DNA of 64,000 bases from a virus, in IMG/VR virus record IMGVR_UViG_3300042905_004067; one strand, 5' to 3'. Positions within the stretch are counted from its first letter, which is position 1, and every line of letters begins with the position of its first letter. A program made the translations under genes and the position numbers. A model generated the notes under the pieces. It ran no database searches, was not told where the DNA came from, and saw only the letters and a program-made list of their open reading frames with translations. Below are positions 1,529-55,748 of the stretch, one piece after another.

Positions 1529-4500
1529 ATGAATACATTAAATGAAGCAAAACAAGTAGGCTCTGCGTTTTTGGTGACAGGTGCATTTAACCCATACACC
1601 AGAGGACACGAGGAAGTTGCAAAACTTGCAGCGCAACACGCACACGGTGCTGGTTACAGTCATTTTTATCATGGATTGGGAGCATCTGAAAACAGACAAG
1701 ATGCACCTCTTTCTTTTAAACAAAAAGAACAAATAGTTCGTGGTTCCCATGAATATATTAAAAAAGGGATGCCAAAGACAAGAATGACATTCGGGATCGT
1801 TCCCCAACAGTCATCTATTTCTCCATTACATCAAATTGTTCATTTGATCGAAAAGGGTGGCCACAAGCACATTACGGTTGCTTTAGGACCTGATCAAATG
1901 ACAGGAGATAAAAGTCTAAGAGCAGCAATTGAAAAACACATAACAACTCATGGTGGTATTTTAGGATCAAATCAAAAAACTGTTCATAGAGTAAAAGTTG
2001 ATTTTCACTCACTTGCAGAAAAACGAAGTGAAGAGGAATTGTCGTTACCACAATTAAAATCATTAGTAAAAGATGGTAGGATTCCAGTAGAACACGCAAA
2101 GGCTGGAAGACTAAGAAAAGCAATACTTGCTGGTGATACTGAATTGGCTCATGCATTTATGCCAGACTCAATTCATGCGGCAAAAAAACAAAAACATTAT
2201 GCAGATATGATTTCTAAACAATTTAAAGATGTAGTACCGGCAGCAGAAGAAAAAGCAAGACTAGAGAGAAACAAAAAAGCAAGAGAGCGAGCAGCAACAA
2301 AAAGAAAGAAAAAACTAACAGAAATGTTCTCTGTTGCTAAAATTGAAGAATTTATGAATATGCTTGCTGAAGCACAAATAGTTCAAGCAACAATACAAAA
2401 AAGAAAAAATACACTGAATACTGCATTGTATAGACAACATCAAGCAGCAATTGTAAACAGAGAATCACCACGACAAAGAGCAGCAAGAGTAGCAAGAACT
2501 CGTTTTCATGTAAGAACTCGTTTCGCCAGAGAAATTATTGGAGCAAAGCAAAAAGAAGCAGCACTAGGTCTTGATAAACCGCCAAGAAGAGTTGGTACTG
2601 TCAAACAACCAAAAAGAGGAACTATGTTAGAGAACATTTTATTTGAAGCAAAAAGAAAAGCAATCGACTCTCCTTCTAGGACTCTTTCAAAAACAAGAGC
2701 AGAATCTAGACCTGCAAGAAATAAAACAGAAAAAGATAAACATCGAAAAAGAGAAGAACGACGACATGCAAAAAGAAAACCAAATTTTGCTGTAGTTATT
2801 GGTGCTGATAAAAAAATAAGAATCGTAAAGAAAGAAGACATTGGCAAGTCAAAAGTTGTTGTATCTCCCGAAAAGTTTAGTAGAGGTCAGGCAAAAAAGT
2901 ATCTTCAAGATCCTAAATTTGAAATAACTGATTCTTCAAAGAAACTATTCCCAGAGTTCTCAAGAGCAAAACCAAAGGGAAAGACAAAATCTGCAAAAAA
3001 GAATGAGAAAAGTAAAACAAAGAAAAAGACTCAACAAAAGTCTACATTAACAAAAAAACCACCAAAAGAAGTTCTTCAAAAGCAATTTCCTCTTCCAAAA
3101 GTACCACCAAGAGGGAAAAAAGTAACATCACCAAAGTCACAATATGACGATTGGGATCATAGTGCTACTGAGTTAGAGGAAGCAATTCCTTTTATGTTAA
3201 ATCAGATGTTAAAAGCAAAAACTGATACTGATGTAAAAGGTATAACCGAAAAAATAGGAAAAAGTCAAACGTTGGCTGCTGCTGCACAACGAGCAGTCGA
3301 TCAAATAATAAAACAAGTTGGTCCTGTTGTTGCGATACACATGGGTAAAAACAACGGAAAACTAACCAAGCAATGGTTGAGTGCTGGTGGTGTAAACGCC
3401 ACATCAAAATCTGATGTCGTTCTTGTTCCTGCCGATGTATGGAAAGCCTCCGGAGGTAAACTAGAAAATATTGATCCTAAAAAATGCATAAGAGCAAGCA
3501 TGAAGTGTGGTGCAGCCAGAATATTGAATGGAGAGTCTGGAGAAGCAATTGCCACAGTAGAGGCTGCTAATCGTTATGCTGGAAACATAGTAGCAAAAAG
3601 TCCAAAAGTTGCAAAACTATTTAAACAAGCAAAGGATATGATTTCTCAGTTTGCAAAATCAGCCGAATTGGGCGAATACGAAATTGGAGAAATTAAAAAA
3701 ATAGCAGCATCAGGTGAACTACCAAAAGATAAAGAATTTGCAAAATATAGAGCAATTGTTGAATCACAAGAAAAATTGGCAAGTCAAGTTGCTGCAAAAC
3801 TTCAAGAAATATTCGACGCCAGTGAAGAATTTAAAATGGGTCTAATATTAGAATCTTTCACAGGAAATGAAAAATTTGGAAGCGACACTCTACAGGCAGC
3901 AAACTACGTTCTAGGTGTAAACGCAGACGGAACTGGTGTAAAACTAGAGGCTATTTCTGAAAAAATGATTCAAAGAATTGTTCCAGATTTACAATTTAGA
4001 GGTGCTTTTAAAGGAAGATCTAGAAAAAGCGGAGGAAAGAAAATTAGAACTCTTTCCACCCTCTATAACATTGATTATAAACCATCACGACTAACCGAAC
4101 AGAGTGAACCTTTTTTGCAAACAAATTTTGCAAACAATGCAGCAATTGTAGAACAAGATTTACGAATGATTGGTGATGATGTTATGATGTTTATGGAATA
4201 CTGCGACTTAGAACCGGCAATGATTACATCAAATGAATTAGATGTAACTGATTACATGGAAGGTTCTGCGAGAAACTATAATATCATTACCATAGATGGA
4301 AAACAACAGGTAGCAATACCAGTTCAGGACTTCCAACAGTTTGAGGAATTACCACAACAACTTTCCGAAACATATGACTTTATTAATGATTTTATTGTAG
4401 AAAATTTAGAAAATAAAGAAGCACTTACTTTGATTTTGACCTCCGGTCTAGTCTCACCGGAAACAATAACAAAATCAATAGAAAAAATAGATGCTGGTTC

Positions 4501-4918
4501 TATATTAAATGAAATGTGGGAGACTAGTTTAATTAAACCAGAACTGTATGAATCGTTTGTTATAGAAGCAAGAAACTACAAAAAAGAATACAAAAATTAT
4601 CATGGTAAACCTGAACAAAGAGCAAATAGATCTAAACGGGTTTTGGCTCGCAGAAAAATGATGAAAAAAGGAAAAGTGAAGAAAGGTGATGGAAAAGATG
4701 TTCACCACGAAGATGGAAATCCACAAAACAATGGAGATTCCAATCTTAGAGTTCTTTCAAAAAGTAAAAACAGATCAATGAATGAAGAACATGGAGCCGG
4801 CGAAGAAGGAACCGACGAATTAAGAAAGAAATTTCTTTCAGTTACACCATATTCAGTAGATCCAATTAAAAAAATAATAAAGGGAGTAGTTAAACATGGC
4901 ATCAAGCACAACAAGTAA
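1529..4918 (+). CDS. 1129-aa multidomain virion-associated protein: N-terminal cytidylyltransferase-like (HIGH) domain, basic linkers, central PD-(D/E)xK-like domain, C-terminal HNH-like domain
   Basis: GAFNPYTRGH (T/HxGH nucleotidyltransferase motif); TSKSDV...RASMK; KDVHHEDGNPQNNGDSNLRVLSKSKNRS (HNH). Many (L/I/M)xE sites lie at domain junctions. Confidence 0.7.
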   Translation: MNTLNEAKQVGSAFLVTGAFNPYTRGHEEVAKLAAQHAHGAGYSHFYHGLGASENRQDAPLSFKQKEQIVRGSHEYIKKGMPKTRMTFGIVPQQSSISPLHQIVHLIEKGGHKHITVALGPDQMTGDKSLRAAIEKHITTHGGILGSNQKTVHRVKVDFHSLAEKRSEEELSLPQLKSLVKDGRIPVEHAKAGRLRKAILAGDTELAHAFMPDSIHAAKKQKHYADMISKQFKDVVPAAEEKARLERNKKARERAATKRKKKLTEMFSVAKIEEFMNMLAEAQIVQATIQKRKNTLNTALYRQHQAAIVNRESPRQRAARVARTRFHVRTRFAREIIGAKQKEAALGLDKPPRRVGTVKQPKRGTMLENILFEAKRKAIDSPSRTLSKTRAESRPARNKTEKDKHRKREERRHAKRKPNFAVVIGADKKIRIVKKEDIGKSKVVVSPEKFSRGQAKKYLQDPKFEITDSSKKLFPEFSRAKPKGKTKSAKKNEKSKTKKKTQQKSTLTKKPPKEVLQKQFPLPKVPPRGKKVTSPKSQYDDWDHSATELEEAIPFMLNQMLKAKTDTDVKGITEKIGKSQTLAAAAQRAVDQIIKQVGPVVAIHMGKNNGKLTKQWLSAGGVNATSKSDVVLVPADVWKASGGKLENIDPKKCIRASMKCGAARILNGESGEAIATVEAANRYAGNIVAKSPKVAKLFKQAKDMISQFAKSAELGEYEIGEIKKIAASGELPKDKEFAKYRAIVESQEKLASQVAAKLQEIFDASEEFKMGLILESFTGNEKFGSDTLQAANYVLGVNADGTGVKLEAISEKMIQRIVPDLQFRGAFKGRSRKSGGKKIRTLSTLYNIDYKPSRLTEQSEPFLQTNFANNAAIVEQDLRMIGDDVMMFMEYCDLEPAMITSNELDVTDYMEGSARNYNIITIDGKQQVAIPVQDFQQFEELPQQLSETYDFINDFIVENLENKEALTLILTSGLVSPETITKSIEKIDAGSILNEMWETSLIKPELYESFVIEARNYKKEYKNYHGKPEQRANRSKRVLARRKMMKKGKVKKGDGKDVHHEDGNPQNNGDSNLRVLSKSKNRSMNEEHGAGEEGTDELRKKFLSVTPYSVDPIKKIIKGVVKHGIKHNK

Positions 4919-7666: not shown

Positions 7667-8047
7667 ATGAAGTTTGAGTTTCTTAATGATGAAAATTTTA
7701 TGATTTATGCCATGCAGGCGTATGACAATCCGTTCTGCAAAGGTATAAACGAATTTAATGATGATTTAATGAAAATAAAATACATTAAGAGACTATTAAA
7801 CAGATTTGATAAAACAAAAGATTTAAAAGAAAGACTGATCTTAAATCATATTATATTACTAAACAATGTTTTTGGAAACGAAGCCTGTTGTAGAATACTA
7901 TTTTTTAAGATCTGTCCAAAATTTCATCCGTACTTGAAGGCTTTTTTAGAATATTTACAGATACTTCCAAAAAGAATACCTGAGATTGATTTAACAAAAA
8001 TACCAAGTGATCATAGAATAACATTAATTCTTCAAAAACTAAAATGA
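7667..8047 (+). CDS. Conserved hypothetical protein of T4-like phages
   Basis: Pattern NFMIYAMQAYDNP...EF.DDL..IKYIKRL...LKERLILNHII.L.NVFG, recognised from T4-like phage hypothetical proteins. Confidence 0.7.
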   Translation: MKFEFLNDENFMIYAMQAYDNPFCKGINEFNDDLMKIKYIKRLLNRFDKTKDLKERLILNHIILLNNVFGNEACCRILFFKICPKFHPYLKAFLEYLQILPKRIPEIDLTKIPSDHRITLILQKLK

Positions 8048-9663
8048 GTCTATCTTATTCACAAATCGTAACAAGTTTCACTATTTGGGATTTTCTTTCT
8101 GAATTGACAAAATCGTTCACTCAAATGGACATTTACAAAGCAGGAATAATTGACAGTCAAGGTAGATTTTTAAAACAACCACAAGAGTACAAAACAGAAA
8201 ATGAAAGAAGAGCAGGAAATTCTTTTTATCGTCTTATTGTTGTTTTAAAACGGGCATTACTCACAAGTTCAGATCCAAAAATTCGTTTTTCAATGAACAA
8301 TCCAATGGCAGCATTGGGTGCTTTATCTGAAGAAGTAGAAAGTTTAGGGGGAGATGGTCAAGCATTTATCGATTCGGTTTATCCGCTCATTGAAGAAATG
8401 TCTGTTGGTGCAGGAGGAATTGTTGGCGTTGGTGTGCCAGCTGACAAACCAGAAGATGTTGTAGTCACCCCATCTGCTGCTGCAAAGCACAAAAAGAGAG
8501 CAAAAAAACAAGCAGTTGGAAGAAAAATATTTGAACAACTGATGTTAGAAGCAAAACGTGTCGTAGAAACTACAGGACATATGACACATCTTGGTGATTT
8601 TTTGTATCATGGTAGTCCAGAAACAGCAATACAACACTTAGAATCTACACATGGTAGATTTAGAGGAAAAACAACTCCTAATCATTCAATGTCCTTAAAG
8701 GCAGACGGTGGCATGAGCGTTGTTTTAAAGAGACATGCTTCAGGTGAACCAGCAGTAGCGTATAAATCGGGTGCTGAAGAATTTAAAACAGAAGATCAAA
8801 TAAGAGCAAGTGGAAAGGAACACTTTGTTCGGGAATTAATTCCAGCATTACATTTGGCAAGAAAAATAAATTTAAAACCGGGAACAGCGGTACAAGGAGA
8901 TCTTCTTTTTTCCTCAAAACACAGTGGTACTGTTCAACCAAATACAATAACATATCAAGCACCACACGGTGCTGAAATTGGTTTTGCTGCACACTCTGCA
9001 TACAAAACTGATGGTTTAAATTTAAGAAAAACATCAAGTCAACCAGAACAACTTTCGGCGGAAGGTGCTTTTATACCGCATTTGGCAATAACACCAAAAA
9101 CAAAACTTTCTCTTTCTTCAGAGAGACATAAAAAAATAACAGCAGCAATTACCTCTGCAAAGAAAATACTTGCAGATAAAAAGGTAAATTCATTTCTTCG
9201 TGGTTTACCATCAAACAAAAAATTTCACAGAATGCTTCAAGAATACTCAAATCATGCTGCAAGAACAACAGGACATAGAACTGTTGAAGGATTGCAAAAA
9301 TTTATTGATGTTCATATGGCAAAAGCATCTCAAAGAAATCTATCAGAAAAAACAAAAAAATCTATGGTAGATTCCTTTCATGGGACAATAAACACCAACA
9401 AAAGAGAACTCGCAGCAGCATTTACAGCACACTCTCACATCAATGATGCAAAACATCATTTGTTGGATCAGTTTAAAGAACACCATGATCAGTTTGAACT
9501 AAAAACACATGGAGGCGAGGAACATGAAGGATTTGTTTCTGCTCTTGGTAAACCCGGAGTATCAGAAACACAAGCCAAATTTGTTCGTGAGGGTGAAGGT
9601 GGGTTCCCCGCAAAGAACACAGAAAATGCCATTAGACGATTTGGCAAACCAGCAGACGCATAA
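8044..9663 (+). CDS. Fusion protein: conserved N-terminal phage domain plus a DUF6267-like ATP-dependent ligase/nucleotidyltransferase-fold domain
   Basis: N-terminal YKAGIIDSQGRFLK. After LMLE: HMTHLGD, SLKADGG (KxDG motif I), VQGDLLF, HEGFV (motif IV-like), AKFV (motif V-like). Confidence 0.6.
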   Translation: MSLSYSQIVTSFTIWDFLSELTKSFTQMDIYKAGIIDSQGRFLKQPQEYKTENERRAGNSFYRLIVVLKRALLTSSDPKIRFSMNNPMAALGALSEEVESLGGDGQAFIDSVYPLIEEMSVGAGGIVGVGVPADKPEDVVVTPSAAAKHKKRAKKQAVGRKIFEQLMLEAKRVVETTGHMTHLGDFLYHGSPETAIQHLESTHGRFRGKTTPNHSMSLKADGGMSVVLKRHASGEPAVAYKSGAEEFKTEDQIRASGKEHFVRELIPALHLARKINLKPGTAVQGDLLFSSKHSGTVQPNTITYQAPHGAEIGFAAHSAYKTDGLNLRKTSSQPEQLSAEGAFIPHLAITPKTKLSLSSERHKKITAAITSAKKILADKKVNSFLRGLPSNKKFHRMLQEYSNHAARTTGHRTVEGLQKFIDVHMAKASQRNLSEKTKKSMVDSFHGTINTNKRELAAAFTAHSHINDAKHHLLDQFKEHHDQFELKTHGGEEHEGFVSALGKPGVSETQAKFVREGEGGFPAKNTENAIRRFGKPADA

Positions 9664-9684: not shown

Positions 9685-10122
9685 ATGATTCCAACAGAAT
9701 TGATTTCCATGCTTGGTGGTGGAGTCACTGGGTTTCTTTTTAGATATTGGGCGCAAAGAGCACAGGATCAAAAAGAAATGTTCCAGATGGCAATGGAAGC
9801 AAACAAGCAAACTACAGAGAATCAAGATAAAGCAGTAAAAAGAGTCCCAATTGATGTTGGGCGTGGTGTTCGACAACTCATAGTATTAACAGTACTATTT
9901 GCTACTCTTGCTGCACCTTTTATTCTTCCATTCTTCGGTGTTCCAACTTTTGTAGAAATTGATGCAAAAAATCCAGAAGGGTTGTTTGGATTGATTCCAG
10001 AAACCACAAGAAAATTCTTTGTTCAAATAAATGGGTTTTTGTATACATCTGAGAATAGACAAATTCTTCTCAGCATAGTTGGTTTTTACTTTGGTTCAGC
10101 AACAGCATCAAACAAGTCATAA
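9685..10122 (+). CDS. Multi-TM membrane protein, holin-like
   Basis: Hydrophobic segments at the N-terminus, middle (LIVLTVLFATLAAPFILPFFGV) and C-terminus (ILLSIVGFYFGS, as in 3TM holin-like families); strong GGAGG SD. Confidence 0.55.
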   Translation: MIPTELISMLGGGVTGFLFRYWAQRAQDQKEMFQMAMEANKQTTENQDKAVKRVPIDVGRGVRQLIVLTVLFATLAAPFILPFFGVPTFVEIDAKNPEGLFGLIPETTRKFFVQINGFLYTSENRQILLSIVGFYFGSATASNKS

Positions 10123-10131
10123 GGAACAAAA

Positions 10132-10428
10132 ATGAGAATTATTATTCCATTACTTTCTACACTCTTGGTGGCTTGTGACACAACTCCAAGAATAATACCA
10201 GATACAACTCCAGATAATCCAATCATACTTAGTATGAAGGATAGAATTAATGAGCCTGGTTTTGCTCAACCACAATCATATAATTGGATTTTTTGGTATG
10301 CTCCTATTTTAATTATATCTTTACTTTGGGCATACCGAGAATTTATTCGTAACCCCCTTTTGTGTGATGATGGAGAGCAAAAAGACGAACCAAATGAAAC
10401 AAAAAACACACCAAAAGAAAGTGTGTAA
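10132..10428 (+). CDS. Lipoprotein with a C-terminal TM segment (unimolecular spanin-like)
   Basis: Signal peptide with lipobox LLVA-C15; C-terminal TM WIFWYAPILIISLLWAY; directly follows the holin-like gene. Confidence 0.55.
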   Translation: MRIIIPLLSTLLVACDTTPRIIPDTTPDNPIILSMKDRINEPGFAQPQSYNWIFWYAPILIISLLWAYREFIRNPLLCDDGEQKDEPNETKNTPKESV

Positions 10429-10431
10429 TTT

Positions 10432-10620
10432 GCTCCAACGGGTTTGAATGCAACAGTGGGCTAATGCGAAAAAGGAATTAGTATGGTTTTACCGAAGCAC
10501 CCTCACCGTGTAATTCTCCAAAGGGGACCCCTATTTAAAGGAGGTGATCCAGCCGAGACACTTTGGGAAAATCCTCAAATGAGAGGCGTTGATAAGGTTA
10601 ACCCTACTTCAACTGTTGGT
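10432..10620 (-). ncRNA. Candidate structured ncRNA carrying an exact copy of the 16S rRNA 3' terminus (anti-Shine-Dalgarno)
   Basis: ORF-free, GC-richer intergenic block. The - strand at 10555-10537 reads CGGCTGGATCACCTCCTTT. Multiple nested stems with G-U pairs on the - strand, a cUUCGg tetraloop, and a TATAAATA promoter immediately upstream. Confidence 0.65.
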
Positions 10621-10624
10621 AGAG

Positions 10625-10632
10625 TATTTATA
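10625..10632 (-). promoter_or_regulatory. Perfect T4 late promoter TATAAATA driving the intergenic ncRNA candidate
   Basis: + strand TATTTATA at 10625-10632. No ORF lies downstream on the - strand before the convergent gene at 10428. Confidence 0.7.
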
Positions 10633-10662
10633 CGCTACACAGTTTTGAAGAAATAAATCATA

Positions 10663-11223
10663 CTATTCTTCGGCAGATATTTTCTGCCAAAGGCTTTTGC
10701 AAATATAGTAAGAGTCAACGATGTCGGAAACAGGGTTTCCGACATCTTTTTTTAACGGAGTAATTATGTCTTTAAGGAATACGCCAGTTTCCGAGATGAA
10801 AGCCTGATACATTGCTTCCTTGTCCGAGTTGCCCTTTCCCGTCGCATTTTTCTTCACTACTGTTGGTGGTATTGTTTCGATTGGAATACTCTGCTGAAAG
10901 AGTTTGTACTTGAGAATACCCGTATTCTCCGCTATGTGGAATACTCTTCCCTTTGCCGCGAAGGCATAATCTTCTAGGCCAACCATTGTGCAACCTATTA
11001 AATACTGTATTGCCCAATCTGATATTGTATCGTATCTCTGACATTCTGTATTATACTCCTCAAATGCCTCTCCACGGACATTTCCTAAAAAAACGGTGTG
11101 CATTTTCTTAACATCTGATAAAAAATAAACCATGCAACGGTCAAATCGGAAAGAACCCGATGCCGTATTGTATATGCATATGCTTGGAGAAGTAAGGCTA
11201 TAATCTATACCAGCAATCACCAT
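10663..11223 (-). CDS. RuvC-like Holliday junction resolvase
   Basis: IAGIDYSLTSP, GLEDY, PPTVVKKNATGKGNSDK, DIVDS catalytic pattern. Confidence 0.8.
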   Translation of the reverse strand: MVIAGIDYSLTSPSICIYNTASGSFRFDRCMVYFLSDVKKMHTVFLGNVRGEAFEEYNTECQRYDTISDWAIQYLIGCTMVGLEDYAFAAKGRVFHIAENTGILKYKLFQQSIPIETIPPTVVKKNATGKGNSDKEAMYQAFISETGVFLKDIITPLKKDVGNPVSDIVDSYYICKSLWQKISAEE

Positions 11224-29342: not shown

Positions 29343-32222
29343 TTACCAGAATTTGAGTGTTCTCCACATTTCAAATCCAGAGTGGCGCATGATGTAGATG
29401 TACGACAGGTCATCCGCAGTCTTTACTATTTCAAACTTGTTGCTCAAGGTTGCGGTTCCGTGTGCGTATGGGATGGAGCCTGCAATGTCAACCTTGAACT
29501 TCGCCACGTCAAGCACATAGATGCGGTTGGTGTTATCCTTTGTGAAGTAATACGAGTCCGCACCATCGTAAACATACATGGAACCCGTTGTCAGAGTTGT
29601 TGCGATGGGTGTGATAAATGGCGTTATTTCCCAAGTTGATGTTGGTATATCAAATATATCAAAAATATTTGAAGCACCACCGCGAGGTGAAATCAACCAC
29701 CGTCCCTTCTTTGCAGCATCAGACAGTCCAAACAACCACTTGATGTCCGTTCCTGTGCTTCTTGCAGGGATTTCGTAAACGCAGTATATGGTGTCTGTGG
29801 CGTTTGTTCCTATGGTTGATGGGATGGTTATGGCGGTGGCAGTGTTTGATGTGATTGAACCCTCGCCACCAACTGCCGTTCCACCAACATAACGAACTCT
29901 CTTGCCCGCCAAATAGTTTACAGGGAAGTTTTTGTTTGCATCTGTGAGCGTTGTTGTACCAGCACCAGTGGTGATGATTCCATATGAGTCCATGATTTCG
30001 TATTTGGAAGTGGAATCCGGTGTTGCAACTCCCCACGACGCAACCGTGAGCGTGGTTGCACTGTTGGCTGTGATAACAGCATCATTGCCTTCACCAGTTC
30101 CTGCCACCACACGAACACGGCAGTTCAAGTATTGGTTGTTTCTCCAGTTCTTGGTACTGTCAACCAAAGTAGTTGCAGTTCCTGAAGTTGCCCATCCGTT
30201 GGGTGAACGCTCCGCAACCTTGTCCACGCACATCGCACCAAATGGTCGCATTTCTTGAATAATATACCGTGACTGTCCGTTGGTCATGGCATTGATTGCA
30301 CTTGCAAGCGTTAGAGTGGTGGCAGTGTTCGCGGTAATTCTCCTTGATCCAAGGCTTGTTGGCGTTGCACCCGCTGTTTGCACATGAACCACACGACCAA
30401 CATGCTCGTTTGTGGTCCAGTTTTGTGATGCGTCTACAATTAGAGATGTGGTTAGCGAACTTGCAGCGGTCGGGCTGGCTGCGGCAGAAGCGTTTGCAGC
30501 AATGCTGAATGTGGTCAGAGATGCTGTGCCTATGATTTGGAAAGTGGCATTAAATGTGGTTTCGGTGGCACATCCTGCAATGGTTGCATACTCGCCATGA
30601 CGGAAATCGTGGTTTACTGCGGTTACCACATTTCCGACCTTTCCAACTGTCAGGGTTATGGTAAGACCAGAACCGCTGCCGCCTGTGGTGTTGGACGATC
30701 CGTTAGAGTAGCCGCTGCCTGATGCTGCAAGTTGAAGCCCTGTTACTGCACCTGTTGAACTAACAGAAGTAACATATGCTTGACCCCCCGAACCTGTGGT
30801 GGAACAGGTCACCAAATCACCAACCACATAGTTTGTGCCACCAGCATTTACTGCAACAGTCAAAATTCCGCTTGCAGAATAGGTAATGCTTGTGATTGCG
30901 TACCCTTCATGGGGAGGACCATACGAACCCGTGTTTCCCGCAGCGGGAGTGGCGGATATCTGACGAGCAACGCCCGAATCAACTACAGGTGCGGTTGCCC
31001 ACAAATCTTTTTCTACGGAATACTGAAGCAGGGCAGCAGAACCGTTGCCTGCCACCCACGTCTTGTCCGTATCTCCGTATATGGCGTAACCTGATGTGTT
31101 GTCTGGGGTGATGTCCCACTTATGTTCAATATAGAATGTGTCTGCCGTGTGTGCAGCAATGCGTCTGCGTTGACCTGTGCCTGTGCCCGATACTATTCGT
31201 ATCTGGTGGTTGGCGTATCGGTCGTATTCGTAGGTTGCTCCACTATGCACCAATGTTTTTGCAGTAGCCGAAGAAGCGGTAACACCGCTAACAAACACAC
31301 CACCCGCTTCGCCTGTACGATCAATGGCAAAATCTGTGCCGAGTGCAGCGGTAATGTGAGCAGGACCAATCGGAGTCTTGGTGAACCATGTGTCCAACAG
31401 AATATCGTAGAACTGCCAAGACGCAAAAGGCGTTGCGGATGCTGCTGAAAGCAGCCATATTCCACCTGTCATAATCTGGTAGACGGAACTTGCATCGGGT
31501 GTGACATCCCAAGAGGTGTTTACAGTAAGTTCGGTAGATTCAATCACAAAATGGGTCTGTGAACCAGAAGATGTAGAAGGAACCGCAAACGGAGCCACCG
31601 CAGAGAAGCCTGTGTTGTTGAAATGGTCAACCGCTTGATGGTTGGTGTCTGAAAGATATAGTGTAGTTGTGTCGTTGTATAGAATTCTGCGTATCTGTGA
31701 CTGACCATTGTTGTAGATAAGTCGCACATTGTATCCGTCCCACTGGTTTACTCTCCACTTTTTCGTTGAGTCACCAATACTTGTTGCACCTCCTGTGGTT
31801 GCCAAGCCGTTATCGTGGATGACTCCATCTGATACAGCCGTGATGGTTCGCTCTTGTCCTGCTCCTGTGCCTGCAATTATACGAATTTTGCTGCCAATAC
31901 AAATGTTACCAAGCCTACCAAGACCACCAACTGTAATGGTGGTGGAGGTTGCACTAATGGTGTGTCCTCTACTGCCCGAATACGCTGCGTATTTTGCTGC
32001 GACAGCCGTGACGGGCGCGATGTTTGGGGGAGCACACTCCTGCCACGAATCGCTGTAGGTATCGTAACGCCACATGGCTTGGGCGTTGATGTAGTACATG
32101 TATCGTGCTTTTTCGTCCGAAGACACCAAAGCAGAAGTGCTGACTGTTGCGACTGGCGCAAAACGCATCCACTCAAATACTGGAAGATCAACTTGTGGTT
32201 TTAATAAATTTTGAAGTGCCAT
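29343..32222 (-). CDS. Large repeat-containing tail/receptor-binding-like protein (959 aa)
   Basis: About 6 copies of a T(L/I).D..KNW..NQ....VR...GTG.GQ.R.I..NT.TTL motif; propeller-like N/C-terminal segments; visibly higher GC than the flanks. Confidence 0.65.
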   Translation of the reverse strand: MALQNLLKPQVDLPVFEWMRFAPVATVSTSALVSSDEKARYMYYINAQAMWRYDTYSDSWQECAPPNIAPVTAVAAKYAAYSGSRGHTISATSTTITVGGLGRLGNICIGSKIRIIAGTGAGQERTITAVSDGVIHDNGLATTGGATSIGDSTKKWRVNQWDGYNVRLIYNNGQSQIRRILYNDTTTLYLSDTNHQAVDHFNNTGFSAVAPFAVPSTSSGSQTHFVIESTELTVNTSWDVTPDASSVYQIMTGGIWLLSAASATPFASWQFYDILLDTWFTKTPIGPAHITAALGTDFAIDRTGEAGGVFVSGVTASSATAKTLVHSGATYEYDRYANHQIRIVSGTGTGQRRRIAAHTADTFYIEHKWDITPDNTSGYAIYGDTDKTWVAGNGSAALLQYSVEKDLWATAPVVDSGVARQISATPAAGNTGSYGPPHEGYAITSITYSASGILTVAVNAGGTNYVVGDLVTCSTTGSGGQAYVTSVSSTGAVTGLQLAASGSGYSNGSSNTTGGSGSGLTITLTVGKVGNVVTAVNHDFRHGEYATIAGCATETTFNATFQIIGTASLTTFSIAANASAAASPTAASSLTTSLIVDASQNWTTNEHVGRVVHVQTAGATPTSLGSRRITANTATTLTLASAINAMTNGQSRYIIQEMRPFGAMCVDKVAERSPNGWATSGTATTLVDSTKNWRNNQYLNCRVRVVAGTGEGNDAVITANSATTLTVASWGVATPDSTSKYEIMDSYGIITTGAGTTTLTDANKNFPVNYLAGKRVRYVGGTAVGGEGSITSNTATAITIPSTIGTNATDTIYCVYEIPARSTGTDIKWLFGLSDAAKKGRWLISPRGGASNIFDIFDIPTSTWEITPFITPIATTLTTGSMYVYDGADSYYFTKDNTNRIYVLDVAKFKVDIAGSIPYAHGTATLSNKFEIVKTADDLSYIYIMRHSGFEMWRTLKFW

Positions 32223-54876: not shown

Positions 54877-55566
54877 TCACTTATTGTAGTGACTTGTCGA
54901 TTCAAGTGCAACCCAATACTTGAGAGAAAGATCCTTATGGCTAAATTGACTAATCACAGACTTTGCAATCTTGACTTCGTATTCGCCAGGCAAGAACTTC
55001 AAGTTTTCAATTCTAAAATCAAACGAGAAAGATGAATCATCAGTCTTGTCCGCCAATTCAACAACATATTTGTTGCAAGTTGGATCGTTCTTATCACAAA
55101 CAACACCCACAATTTTATCTCCTTCAGTTGTAACAGAAAGGTGTGGAAGTTGAAGAACTGAGGAAGAACGAACGATTTCATCAAACAATGTTTCTGTCAA
55201 ATCAAATGTTACAACTGCTTCTGGCATGTTGATTGACTTCGTTGGAACTGTTAGCAATTTTGGTTCTGAATAGTAGTAAGTAACACTAGAACCATTATTG
55301 CCAGAAATAATTACGGACTTTTCACCAAACTCAAAGTCTGGATCTTTGAAGAGAGACACGGTTCCTAGAAACTTGTTCATGTCCCAAATACCAAACTCAG
55401 TATCAAACTTTTCATCTACCTTTACTTCTGCCATAACATTCTTAGCAGGAGCAACTGTGGAAATCTTAGTTCCTGGCTTTACCAGCAGATTTGAGTTAAT
55501 TGAAGTAAAATTCTTTAAAATTGTTAGTGTTTGTTTAGAAATTTTCATAGATGTAGATGTAGTCAT
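54877..55566 (-). CDS. gp45: Sliding clamp (gp45)
   Basis: MKISKQTLTILKNFTSIN, FGIWDMNKFL, ENLKFLPGEY, YWVALE. Confidence 0.93.
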   Translation of the reverse strand: MTTSTSMKISKQTLTILKNFTSINSNLLVKPGTKISTVAPAKNVMAEVKVDEKFDTEFGIWDMNKFLGTVSLFKDPDFEFGEKSVIISGNNGSSVTYYYSEPKLLTVPTKSINMPEAVVTFDLTETLFDEIVRSSSVLQLPHLSVTTEGDKIVGVVCDKNDPTCNKYVVELADKTDDSSFSFDFRIENLKFLPGEYEVKIAKSVISQFSHKDLSLKYWVALESTSHYNK

Positions 55567-55748
55567 TGGTAATCCTCGTCTTCCATTTTATCAGCAATGT
55601 CGTCAAAGTCAATATTTCCGTGCTTAATATCATCCATAATACGTCTAGTATCGTGGCGATTTCCTCGGTTCTTTTTAACGCGAGTCTTCTTTACGGTGCG
55701 TTTAAAATCACGATTATCAGGTTCTCTTCCTTTATAGTATTCTGACAT
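55563..55748 (-). CDS. Small hypothetical protein (basic N-half, acidic tail)
   Basis: 61-aa ORF abutting both neighbours, with a GAGG SD. Confidence 0.65.
   Translation of the reverse strand: MSEYYKGREPDNRDFKRTVKKTRVKKNRGNRHDTRRIMDDIKHGNIDFDDIADKMEDEDYQ

Follow-up and report, generated by a model that had tools for sequence, protein, structure and literature searches.

The window analysed here, a stretch of 64,000 nucleotides (nt) of viral DNA (IMG/VR record IMGVR_UViG_3300042905_004067), carries between two convergent gene blocks a putative small RNA (sRNA) gene, whose minus-strand transcript would contain an exact copy of the 3' terminus of bacterial 16S rRNA, the mRNA-selecting tail in which the anti-Shine-Dalgarno (anti-SD) sequence resides. 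The existence of this RNA gene, which combines a conserved promoter motif, a structured body and a terminator on the same strand, is well supported by the comparison of related sequences, and the element represents a well-defined new sRNA family of uncultured freshwater T4-like phages. We propose that the RNA acts as a mimic or decoy of the 16S tail, a mechanism deduced from the sequence and to which we give a probability of about 0.45. That its function depends on its likeness to the 16S tail is probable.

The argument is built around three elements:

10537-10555, minus strand: 19-nt copy of the 16S 3' terminus, CGGCUGGAUCACCUCCUUU, identified by sequence match and equivalent, in this window, to E. 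coli positions 1524-1542.
10540-10554, minus strand: core invariant throughout the family, GGCUGGAUCACCUCC, the longest invariant run of alignment A3, equivalent to E. coli 16S positions 1525-1539.
10525-10535, minus strand: Shine-Dalgarno-like (SD-like) segment AAUAGGGGUCC, the predicted partner of the core, recognised by its invariance and by pairing prediction.

The plus strand of the window reads AAAGGAGGTGATCCAGCCG at 10537-10555, and the minus strand therefore corresponds to the last 19 nt of bacterial 16S rRNA. This identity had been claimed in a first-pass annotation made from the letters of the window alone, and it is borne out by the 16S 3' ends that were checked in five bacterial genomes reached via other loci. 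The same 19-mer is found exactly in a Bacillus-labelled genome, where it forms the final 19 nt of the Rfam SSU_rRNA_bacteria match, and in the bacterial comparison loci Rfam places the match to the 19-mer at the terminal residues of that model. It occurs five times in Nostoc, each time with one mismatch, and on two contigs of a Fonsibacter metagenome-assembled genome (MAG), with one mismatch each; Sphingobacterium presents the Bacteroidota GGAAUA variant of the 16S tail. Within the window the 19-mer has a single site, even when up to three mismatches are allowed, and 0 of 100 shuffles gave a match. The similarity of the window RNA to real loci comprising 16S rRNA and the internal transcribed spacer is limited to 17-20 nt, and no SSU rRNA (RF00177) was detected at the locus by Rfam, either at the gathering threshold or at E<=10. 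The earlier statement that the flanks are not ribosomal is thus upheld, and the locus is confirmed to be an exact 16S 3' terminus set in non-rRNA sequence and not a captured rRNA gene. As a separate matter, the Fonsibacter-labelled MAG has two different 16S 3' ends (loci L235 and L239), with different helix-45 sequences and tails (CCTCCTTA and CCTCCTTT), which suggests a mixed bin.

The same element recurs at the same place in related phages. A search with the RuvC-like protein encoded next to it led to 80 viral loci, and in all 20 of those with a RuvC identity of 82% or more, GGATCACCTCC is found some 115 nt past the RuvC stop codon. Three motif scans of viral contigs, two of which omitted the core, returned the identical set of 24 IMG/VR contigs, bearing 24 different metagenome ids, and revealed no relative devoid of the core. 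A scan of the JGI metagenome contigs added 10 matches, among them one new variant (L107); three of these 10 are probably the same assemblies as IMG/VR contigs, as their lengths and match positions are equal. Altogether, the family comprises about eight sequence lineages.

In the 14-sequence alignment, the 15-nt run GGCTGGATCACCTCC (10554-10540) is the longest invariant stretch. From 5' to 3' it comprises the five bases with which the 3' strand of helix 45 ends, GAUCA and CCUCC. The base that precedes it is C or U, and the three bases past CCUCC are UUU, UUG, CGU or UCG, so that the positions equivalent to E. coli 1540-1542 vary freely; because the bases flanking the core vary in the family, the full 19-mer is exclusive to this window. 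Near the RuvC-like gene, related phages thus keep the 15-nt core and not the complete 19-mer. Conservation reaches 5' into GGCUG and halts exactly at the equivalent of C1539. Since it extends into GGCUGGAUCA, which SDs rarely reach, and leaves variable the U residues opposite the AA of AAGGAGG, the pattern is closer to a protein footprint, in particular that of Era (base of helix 45, GAUCA and CCUCC; PMC10582724), than to a seed for SD pairing. Furthermore, the core is invariant while the synonymous sites of the flanking genes are saturated, which argues that its identity with the 16S tail is under strong selection.

The second-longest invariant run, AATAGGGGTCC (11 nt, 10535-10525), is located 4 nt 3' of the core. 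Partition-function calculations predict two registers for the pairing of the core with this G-tract, namely GGAUC-A-CCU with AGG-GGUCC, or CCUCC with GGGG, with pairing probabilities of 0.4-0.9 in most lineages; the candidate pairing of the core hairpin would be GGAUCACCU with AGGGGUCC, and the predicted probabilities of the seed being unpaired are mostly 0.05-0.6. A core hairpin resembling the helix formed by an SD and an anti-SD is therefore plausible from the folding predictions. The first of the two stems had already been drawn in the first-pass annotation and is present in the relatives, where its invariance leaves it without covariation. The same annotation displayed the anti-SD in a loop; the predictions place it, instead, mostly in pairs with the invariant SD-like G-tract.

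The ends and the strand of the RNA are indicated by the following features:

10625-10632, minus strand: promoter-like motif TATAAATA, the T4 late-promoter consensus, about 30 nt past the stop codon of the RuvC-like gene.
10397-10619, minus strand: predicted sRNA body of about 223 nt, with a 5' end deduced from the promoter spacing and a 3' end from the U-run of the terminator.
10397-10426, minus strand: intrinsic terminator, made of an ACACACU...GGUGUGU stem (10406-10426) and a U-run, with a compensatory C-G to U-A change and several G-U pairs in relatives.

In T4-type late promoters, the motif lies about 6 nt upstream of the transcription start and is read by a gp55-type sigma factor. The perfect minus-strand motif, as first read in this window, is unchanged in 14 of 14 aligned variants, while the bases on either side of it vary. 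ATAAATA is depleted in the window as a whole, with 20 copies against 29 expected; 17 of the 20 point the same way as the genes around them, and several precede a start codon by 10-55 nt. Judged by the T4 consensus, this set looks like the late promoters of the phage; its sites include 7142, 9660, 11229, 12001, 32895, 35778 and 53457. At the other end, the terminator overlaps the last codons of the convergent gene of 98 amino acids (aa); its stem is kept in every lineage, and a U-run is found 3' of the stem on the minus strand only. The extent first ascribed to the RNA was consequently too short, as the transcript is predicted to run on through the terminator stem (10426-10406) and the U-run to about 10397. 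The choice of strand agrees with the G-U pairs that had been taken as its sign: 39 of the 410 paired cells in the covariance model (CM) alignment are G-U, and these would be A-C on the plus strand. No terminator was found between the RuvC-like gene and the RNA, and the RNA would therefore also constitute the 3' untranslated region (UTR) of the RuvC message. On the plus strand, a strong terminator-like hairpin at 10720-10746, with a 12-bp stem (GATGTCGGAAAC/GTTTCCGACATC) followed by T7, is situated inside the 3' coding part of the RuvC-like gene, and would stop read-through of the plus block only past the whole sRNA locus, to which such a transcript is antisense.

The helices for which the alignment provides information are listed below:

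10612-10618, minus strand: 5' strand of P1, CAACAGU, pairing with 10451-10457.
10451-10457, minus strand: 3' strand of P1, ACUGUUG, with G-C replaced by G-U in four rows (A-C if read on the plus strand).
10580-10585, minus strand: 5' strand of P2, CUCUCA, pairing with UGAGRG at 10500-10505.
10500-10505, minus strand: 3' strand of P2, UGAGGG, from the alignment pairing.
10434-10448, minus strand: P5 hairpin (UUCA ... UGGA) with a stem of 4 bp, the invariant GCAAA coming right after it; two of the four pairs are changed on both sides.

In the five-helix model, 96.5% of the cells are paired, and sliding the partners lowers this share to 33-55%. Changes on both sides were counted in 13 cells, while shuffles gave 4.0, and none of 500 shuffles reached the observed value; the CM alignment gave a similar result, the counts of the two alignments being 13-15 for the data and 4-5 for the shuffles. 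As judged from these alignments, the RNA is structured and its base pairs are kept by compensatory changes in P1, P5 and the terminator. Covariation is limited to these three, and the central domain, core hairpin included, does not vary. P1 closes the molecule by bringing together its 5' end and a 3' segment of variable sequence, and relatives use different sequences in it (L004, L005, L008). It is CAACAGU/ACUGUUG in the window, L001 and L107, as had been foreseen, and CAACAGU/AUUGUUG, with one G-U pair, in L002 and L014; in L004 it becomes an 18-bp duplex of AUCAGUUGGAG.GGAGUUA with UGGCUCC.CUCUAAUUGAU, and in L005 a 10-bp duplex, CAGUUGAAGU/ACUUUAACUG. Cognate P1 duplexes have a mean energy of -12.9 kcal/mol, against -10.2 kcal/mol for non-cognate ones (permutation p=0.023). 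The changes on both sides of P5 are U-A/C-G at one pair and C-G/A-U/U-A/G-C at another. P2 is paired in 100% of the cells, its only variation being one-sided (U-G to U-A), and it competes with the CCUC/GAGG and GAAUUA/UAAUUC stems of the initial fold, which are not conserved; the CCAAAG/CUUUGG stem of that fold shows partial conservation. A candidate helix P4, between the pre-core GUGUNNN and the region past the hairpin, was not significant (p=0.11). A further pair of SD-like and anti-SD-like character, GAGGAUU at 10570-10576 with AAU(U)CCU(U) at 10473-10479 (minus strand; P6 of this RNA), is compatible with all lineages, with one-sided changes only, and would cross P2 as a pseudoknot.

The initial remark that no open reading frame (ORF) follows the promoter has to be qualified, as one ORF overlaps the RNA on the opposite strand and fails the coding tests:

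10483-10656, plus strand: 57-codon ORF (ORF57), antisense to the RNA and judged from the coding tests to be a non-coding shadow ORF.

ORF57 is open in all variants; its ATG is invariant and comes after a conserved AAAAAGGA and 6-7 nt of spacer, in which three positions vary. The variable fractions at its codon positions 1, 2 and 3 are 0.40, 0.46 and 0.48, and its nonsynonymous and synonymous rates (dN and dS) are about equal (0.14/0.15, 0.23/0.23 and 0.19/0.18). The corresponding fractions are 0.24, 0.12 and 0.73 for the RuvC control (dN about 0.11, dS 1.2-3.6) and 0.38, 0.23 and 0.89 for p145 (dN 0.04-0.22, dS 1.0-3.4, saturated in some pairs), the dS of ORF57 being 5-10 times below that of these two neighbours. 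In L005, the last 17 codons of ORF57 are in a different frame and the nucleotides are still conserved. No Pfam or PHROG match was obtained for ORF57. Because dN equals dS approximately, codon periodicity is missing and the frameshifted L005 conserves its nucleotides, selection acts on the nucleotides and not on the ORF57 protein.

The RNA element fills a 234-bp gap (10429-10662) between the last gene of the plus block, a 98-aa ORF ending at 10428, and the last gene of the minus block, the RuvC-like resolvase (10663-11223; PHROG 159, E=2e-28). The order p164, p126, a 539-aa DUF6267 protein, p145, p98, the RNA and then RuvC on the opposite strand is fixed in the family. For the 539-aa protein (8044-9663, plus strand), which contains a KADG motif, the PDB offered no relative by sequence; in relatives without the RNA, too, its position is taken by an ORF of about that length. 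The window also encodes a T4-type DNA polymerase, 49% identical to cyanomyophage gp43, a DnaB-like helicase, a ribonucleotide reductase and tail fibres; the polymerase and the helicase mark the phage as T4-like. The nearest RuvC of a cultured phage, with 46% identity, is that of Pelagibacter phage Mosig (Kyanoviridae). In relatives with a RuvC of 52-62% identity there is no gap, and RuvC abuts or overlaps the convergent p98-like gene. Our covariance model R1 scores 242 bits at the window and 220-247 bits in 13 relatives; it found nothing in 60 distant RuvC loci or in the Mosig locus, nothing in four large distant relatives (52-83% complete; positive control 228 bits), and nothing significant at six bacterial loci, including the Fonsibacter match. 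Since the distant relatives have neither the gap nor a match to R1, the RNA is, on the evidence of these searches, an innovation restricted to one narrow clade.

The absence of a described RNA family, already suspected, was corroborated: Rfam gave none for the whole window at the gathering threshold, and only a chance snoRNA match at the locus at E<=10. A scan for tRNA and tmRNA was negative, and a DNA search among the INPHARED phages gave no match. Scanning genome contigs with the short pattern GTGCNTCGGTAAAANCAT returned about the estimated chance number of matches, among them the six bacterial loci to which R1 was applied. The 15-mer CTGGATCACCTCCTT has about 110 further matches in viral contigs, mostly in coding sequence and none in rRNA, for a chance estimate of roughly 110 that assumes about 6e10 bases in the collection; no sign of a convergent use of the 16S-tail 15-mer by other phages appears among these viral-contig matches. 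Six loci on unrelated viral contigs (L243, L257, L258, L263, L290 and L294) have the 15-mer in a conserved, GC-rich, apparently coding context, GGCAGATG-CTGGATCACCTCCTT-CCGCTGGAGCC, and probably represent one protein family that contains the motif by chance.

In the mechanism that we propose, the RNA would be transcribed from the minus strand from about 10619, a few bases past the T4-late-type TATAAATA, and would end at the terminator near 10397. Its functional centre would be the invariant copy of the 16S tail together with the SD-like AAUAGGGGUCC placed 4 nt downstream. With these two segments the RNA would imitate the part of the 30S platform that holds the anti-SD, whether it offers a free tail or folds into an SD/anti-SD helix of its own. 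In the late stage of infection, the RNA would bind and titrate a factor that recognises the 16S tail or the platform, and the initiation or the maturation of the host ribosome would thereby be altered. The first candidate partner would be the ribosomal protein bS21, by analogy with the P6 element of OLE RNA, followed by Era; a tail-directed nuclease or a hibernation factor would be further options. Era recognises the base of helix 45, GAUCA and CCUCC (PMC10582724); in the phage RNA the Era-type sequence GGCUG-GAUCA-CCUCC is invariant; it is predicted to be paired, and no helix-45-like stem was found. A 2025 study identified P6 of OLE RNA as an SD/anti-SD mimic in which CCUCCU is paired to AGUAGG, and bS21 binds this P6 in a manner that depends on the nucleotides of the mimic (PMC12054373). 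Pelagibacter phage Mosig (L351, MT647606.1) encodes a bS21 of its own (9983-10132, minus strand; PF01165, 58.6 bits), and the targeting of this ribosomal site is therefore already a theme in this phage group. No bS21 (PF01165) was found in five RNA-bearing fragments and four distant relatives, all of them incomplete. Stated in full, our proposal is that a late sRNA presents the base of helix 45, GAUCA and the anti-SD, alone or as a hairpin, captures a host factor (bS21, Era, a hibernation factor or a tail-cutting nuclease), and thereby reprogrammes initiation or 30S biogenesis or disarms a ribosome-targeting defence, which would make it the first virus-encoded RNA mimic of the 16S tail; in this complete form it is advanced tentatively, at clearly less than even odds. 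A role as donor for rRNA repair, put forward in the first-pass annotation, found no support: the RNA, being in the same sense as 16S rRNA, could not serve as its splint, and relatives devoid of the RNA retain the ligase-like neighbour, the 539-aa DUF6267 protein, as well.

Several observations weigh against a mimic or decoy. The folding energy of the whole RNA is ordinary when compared with shuffles (z -0.36 for the minus strand, +0.26 for the plus strand), and the isolated core hairpin, at -7.9 kcal/mol, is not better than shuffles; its pairs never vary among the aligned variants, so that it is without covariation, and a family of about eight lineages is narrow, which limits the power of covariation. 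If the core hairpin forms, the anti-SD would be largely sequestered. No helix-45-like stem was found 5' of GGCUG. Neither TATAAATA nor ATAAATA is enriched overall in the window, and the 19-mer, compared here with the tails of other bacteria, may not be the 16S tail of the phage host. A guess from the cultured relatives would place the host among freshwater Pelagibacterales or Methylophilaceae.

These points leave room for a structured sRNA whose function is unrelated to the ribosome and whose resemblance to rRNA would be incidental. It might scaffold proteins, act as a decoy against defence or regulate the plus operon in cis as an antisense RNA, and its 16S-like 15-mer would be conserved for the sake of structure or of some other binding. 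Such an RNA would account for the other long invariant blocks, which have no likeness to rRNA (UGAGRGUGCWUCGGUAAAAYCAU, UCCUUUUUCG and GAGCAAA); it would also agree with the fully antisense position of the RNA relative to read-through of the plus block, whose terminator-like hairpin comes only at 10720-10746, and with the occurrence of 16S-tail 15-mers in viral contigs, mostly coding, in about the number given by chance. A coincidence would, however, have had to place one specific 15-mer in a 220-nt RNA (a chance of about 2e-7 by our own calculation), to make it the most conserved run of the family, to set it facing an SD-like partner and to stop it exactly at the anti-SD boundary, and we consider this explanation possible but unlikely. 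A distinctly less probable one keeps the anti-SD and changes its target: the core would open and pair with the SD of host mRNAs or of early phage mRNAs, blocking their translation late in infection. C-rich seeds directed against SDs are a known mode of sRNA action (RNAIII, RsaE/RoxS), strong SD sequences have a perfect complement in the core, GGAG, GAGG or AGGA is found upstream of many phage genes of the window, and the promoter motif is of the late type. The pattern of conservation does not favour such a sponge, as it includes GGCUGGAUCA, which SDs rarely pair, and omits the UU opposite the AA of AAGGAGG; moreover, most of the core is predicted to be engaged in cis pairs, pairing of the window's translation-initiation regions with the core, or with the remaining conserved blocks, does not exceed that of shuffled controls, and no other site of the window lies within three mismatches of the complementary sequence.

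The element might also be read on the plus strand, either as a protein of 57 aa (MVLPKH...GGDPA...) translated from an SD and an ATG of its own, or as a "super-SD", a site for 30S binding in the 3' UTR of the plus operon. The ORF is indeed open in all variants behind AAAAAGGA, a spacer and an invariant ATG, and the plus strand is a perfect SD of 15-19 nt. This reading is nevertheless very improbable: the dN/dS ratio is about 1 and the third codon position shows no excess of variation, unlike RuvC and p145, L005 is frameshifted with conserved nucleotides, neither Pfam nor PHROG recognises the protein, no start codon is found 5-13 nt past GGAGG, and the promoter, the U-run of the terminator and the G-U pairs all indicate the minus strand. 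Finally, an artefact could have arisen from a chimera with host rRNA or from the carry-over of a universal 16S reverse primer (AAGGAGGTGATCCAGCC), and the plus strand contains what we take to be the classic rD1/1541R primer sequence. The probability of this is negligible, since 24 contigs, each with a different metagenome id, have the motif at one and the same position, inside long contigs and surrounded by conserved sequence that is not rRNA; the independent contigs effectively refute an artefact, and the assembly chimera named as a risk in the first-pass annotation is excluded by them.

When the proposed 16S-tail mimic is set beside known systems, OLE P6 is the closest in kind: both RNAs are non-coding and have an exact anti-SD copy that is paired in cis, by prediction in the phage RNA, to an SD-like strand, and in both these segments are among the most conserved parts. 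OLE differs by its length of about 600 nt, its distribution in Bacillota and its P1-P15 architecture, while the phage RNA has about 220 nt and no OLE match in Rfam; the copy in OLE is of 6 nt (CCUCCU), against 15-19 nt including GAUCA and the base of helix 45 in the phage RNA, and bS21 binds OLE, being a candidate partner of the phage RNA. With respect to the 16S tail itself, which is the Era site (PMC10582724), all family members are identical to it at positions 1525-1539, and the window at 1524-1542, but the phage RNA is without helix 45, its copy is internal and not 3'-terminal, and a complementary G-tract follows.

The proposed logic, in which the recognition site of an abundant machine is copied in order to sequester its partner, is also that of titrating mimics. 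These include 6S RNA, which resembles open promoter DNA, CsrB/RsmZ, which carry SD-like GGA motifs, and the rRNA-mimic operators found in the mRNAs of ribosomal proteins. The phage RNA has no sequence or structural homology with any of these and would offer one copy of its motif, not repeats. RNAIII and RsaE/RoxS share with it a CCUCC-type sequence complementary to SDs, but their seeds are short (UCCC/CCCC) and situated in unpaired loops, whereas the phage motif covers 15 nt and is predicted to be paired. Phages carry tRNAs, tmRNA and the ribosomal protein bS21, and phage-encoded bS21 has reportedly been described for aquatic phages. Phage bS21 resembles the proposed mimic as a phage tool acting at the anti-SD and platform of the host 30S in a related T4-like group, and differs in being a protein and not an RNA. 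Neither Rfam nor literature searches directed at this question yielded an account of a phage RNA with a copy of the mRNA-selecting 16S tail.

If the mimicry is functional, this RNA would represent a new RNA-based viral interference with SD recognition, 30S maturation or ribosome-directed defence, and the mechanism, if true, would extend SD/anti-SD mimicry to viruses in a new form. Factors that bind the 16S tail could then also be probed with a small natural ligand, of about 30 nt. T4-like phages that are abundant in freshwater are the source of the family, and, whatever the mechanism, wider searches can be made with R1.

Elsewhere in the window, a small ORF of 61 aa very rich in K and R (MSEYYKGREPDNRDFKRTVKK...) exactly fills an intergenic gap, of which there are few, at 55563-55748 (minus strand). 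A protein of 1129 aa (1529-4918, plus strand) has a C-terminal HNH endonuclease domain (PF13392; PHROG 4590), its remainder being unannotated. The segment 30001-32000, inside a 959-aa gene (29343-32222), has a GC content of 0.50, against 0.30-0.40 elsewhere.

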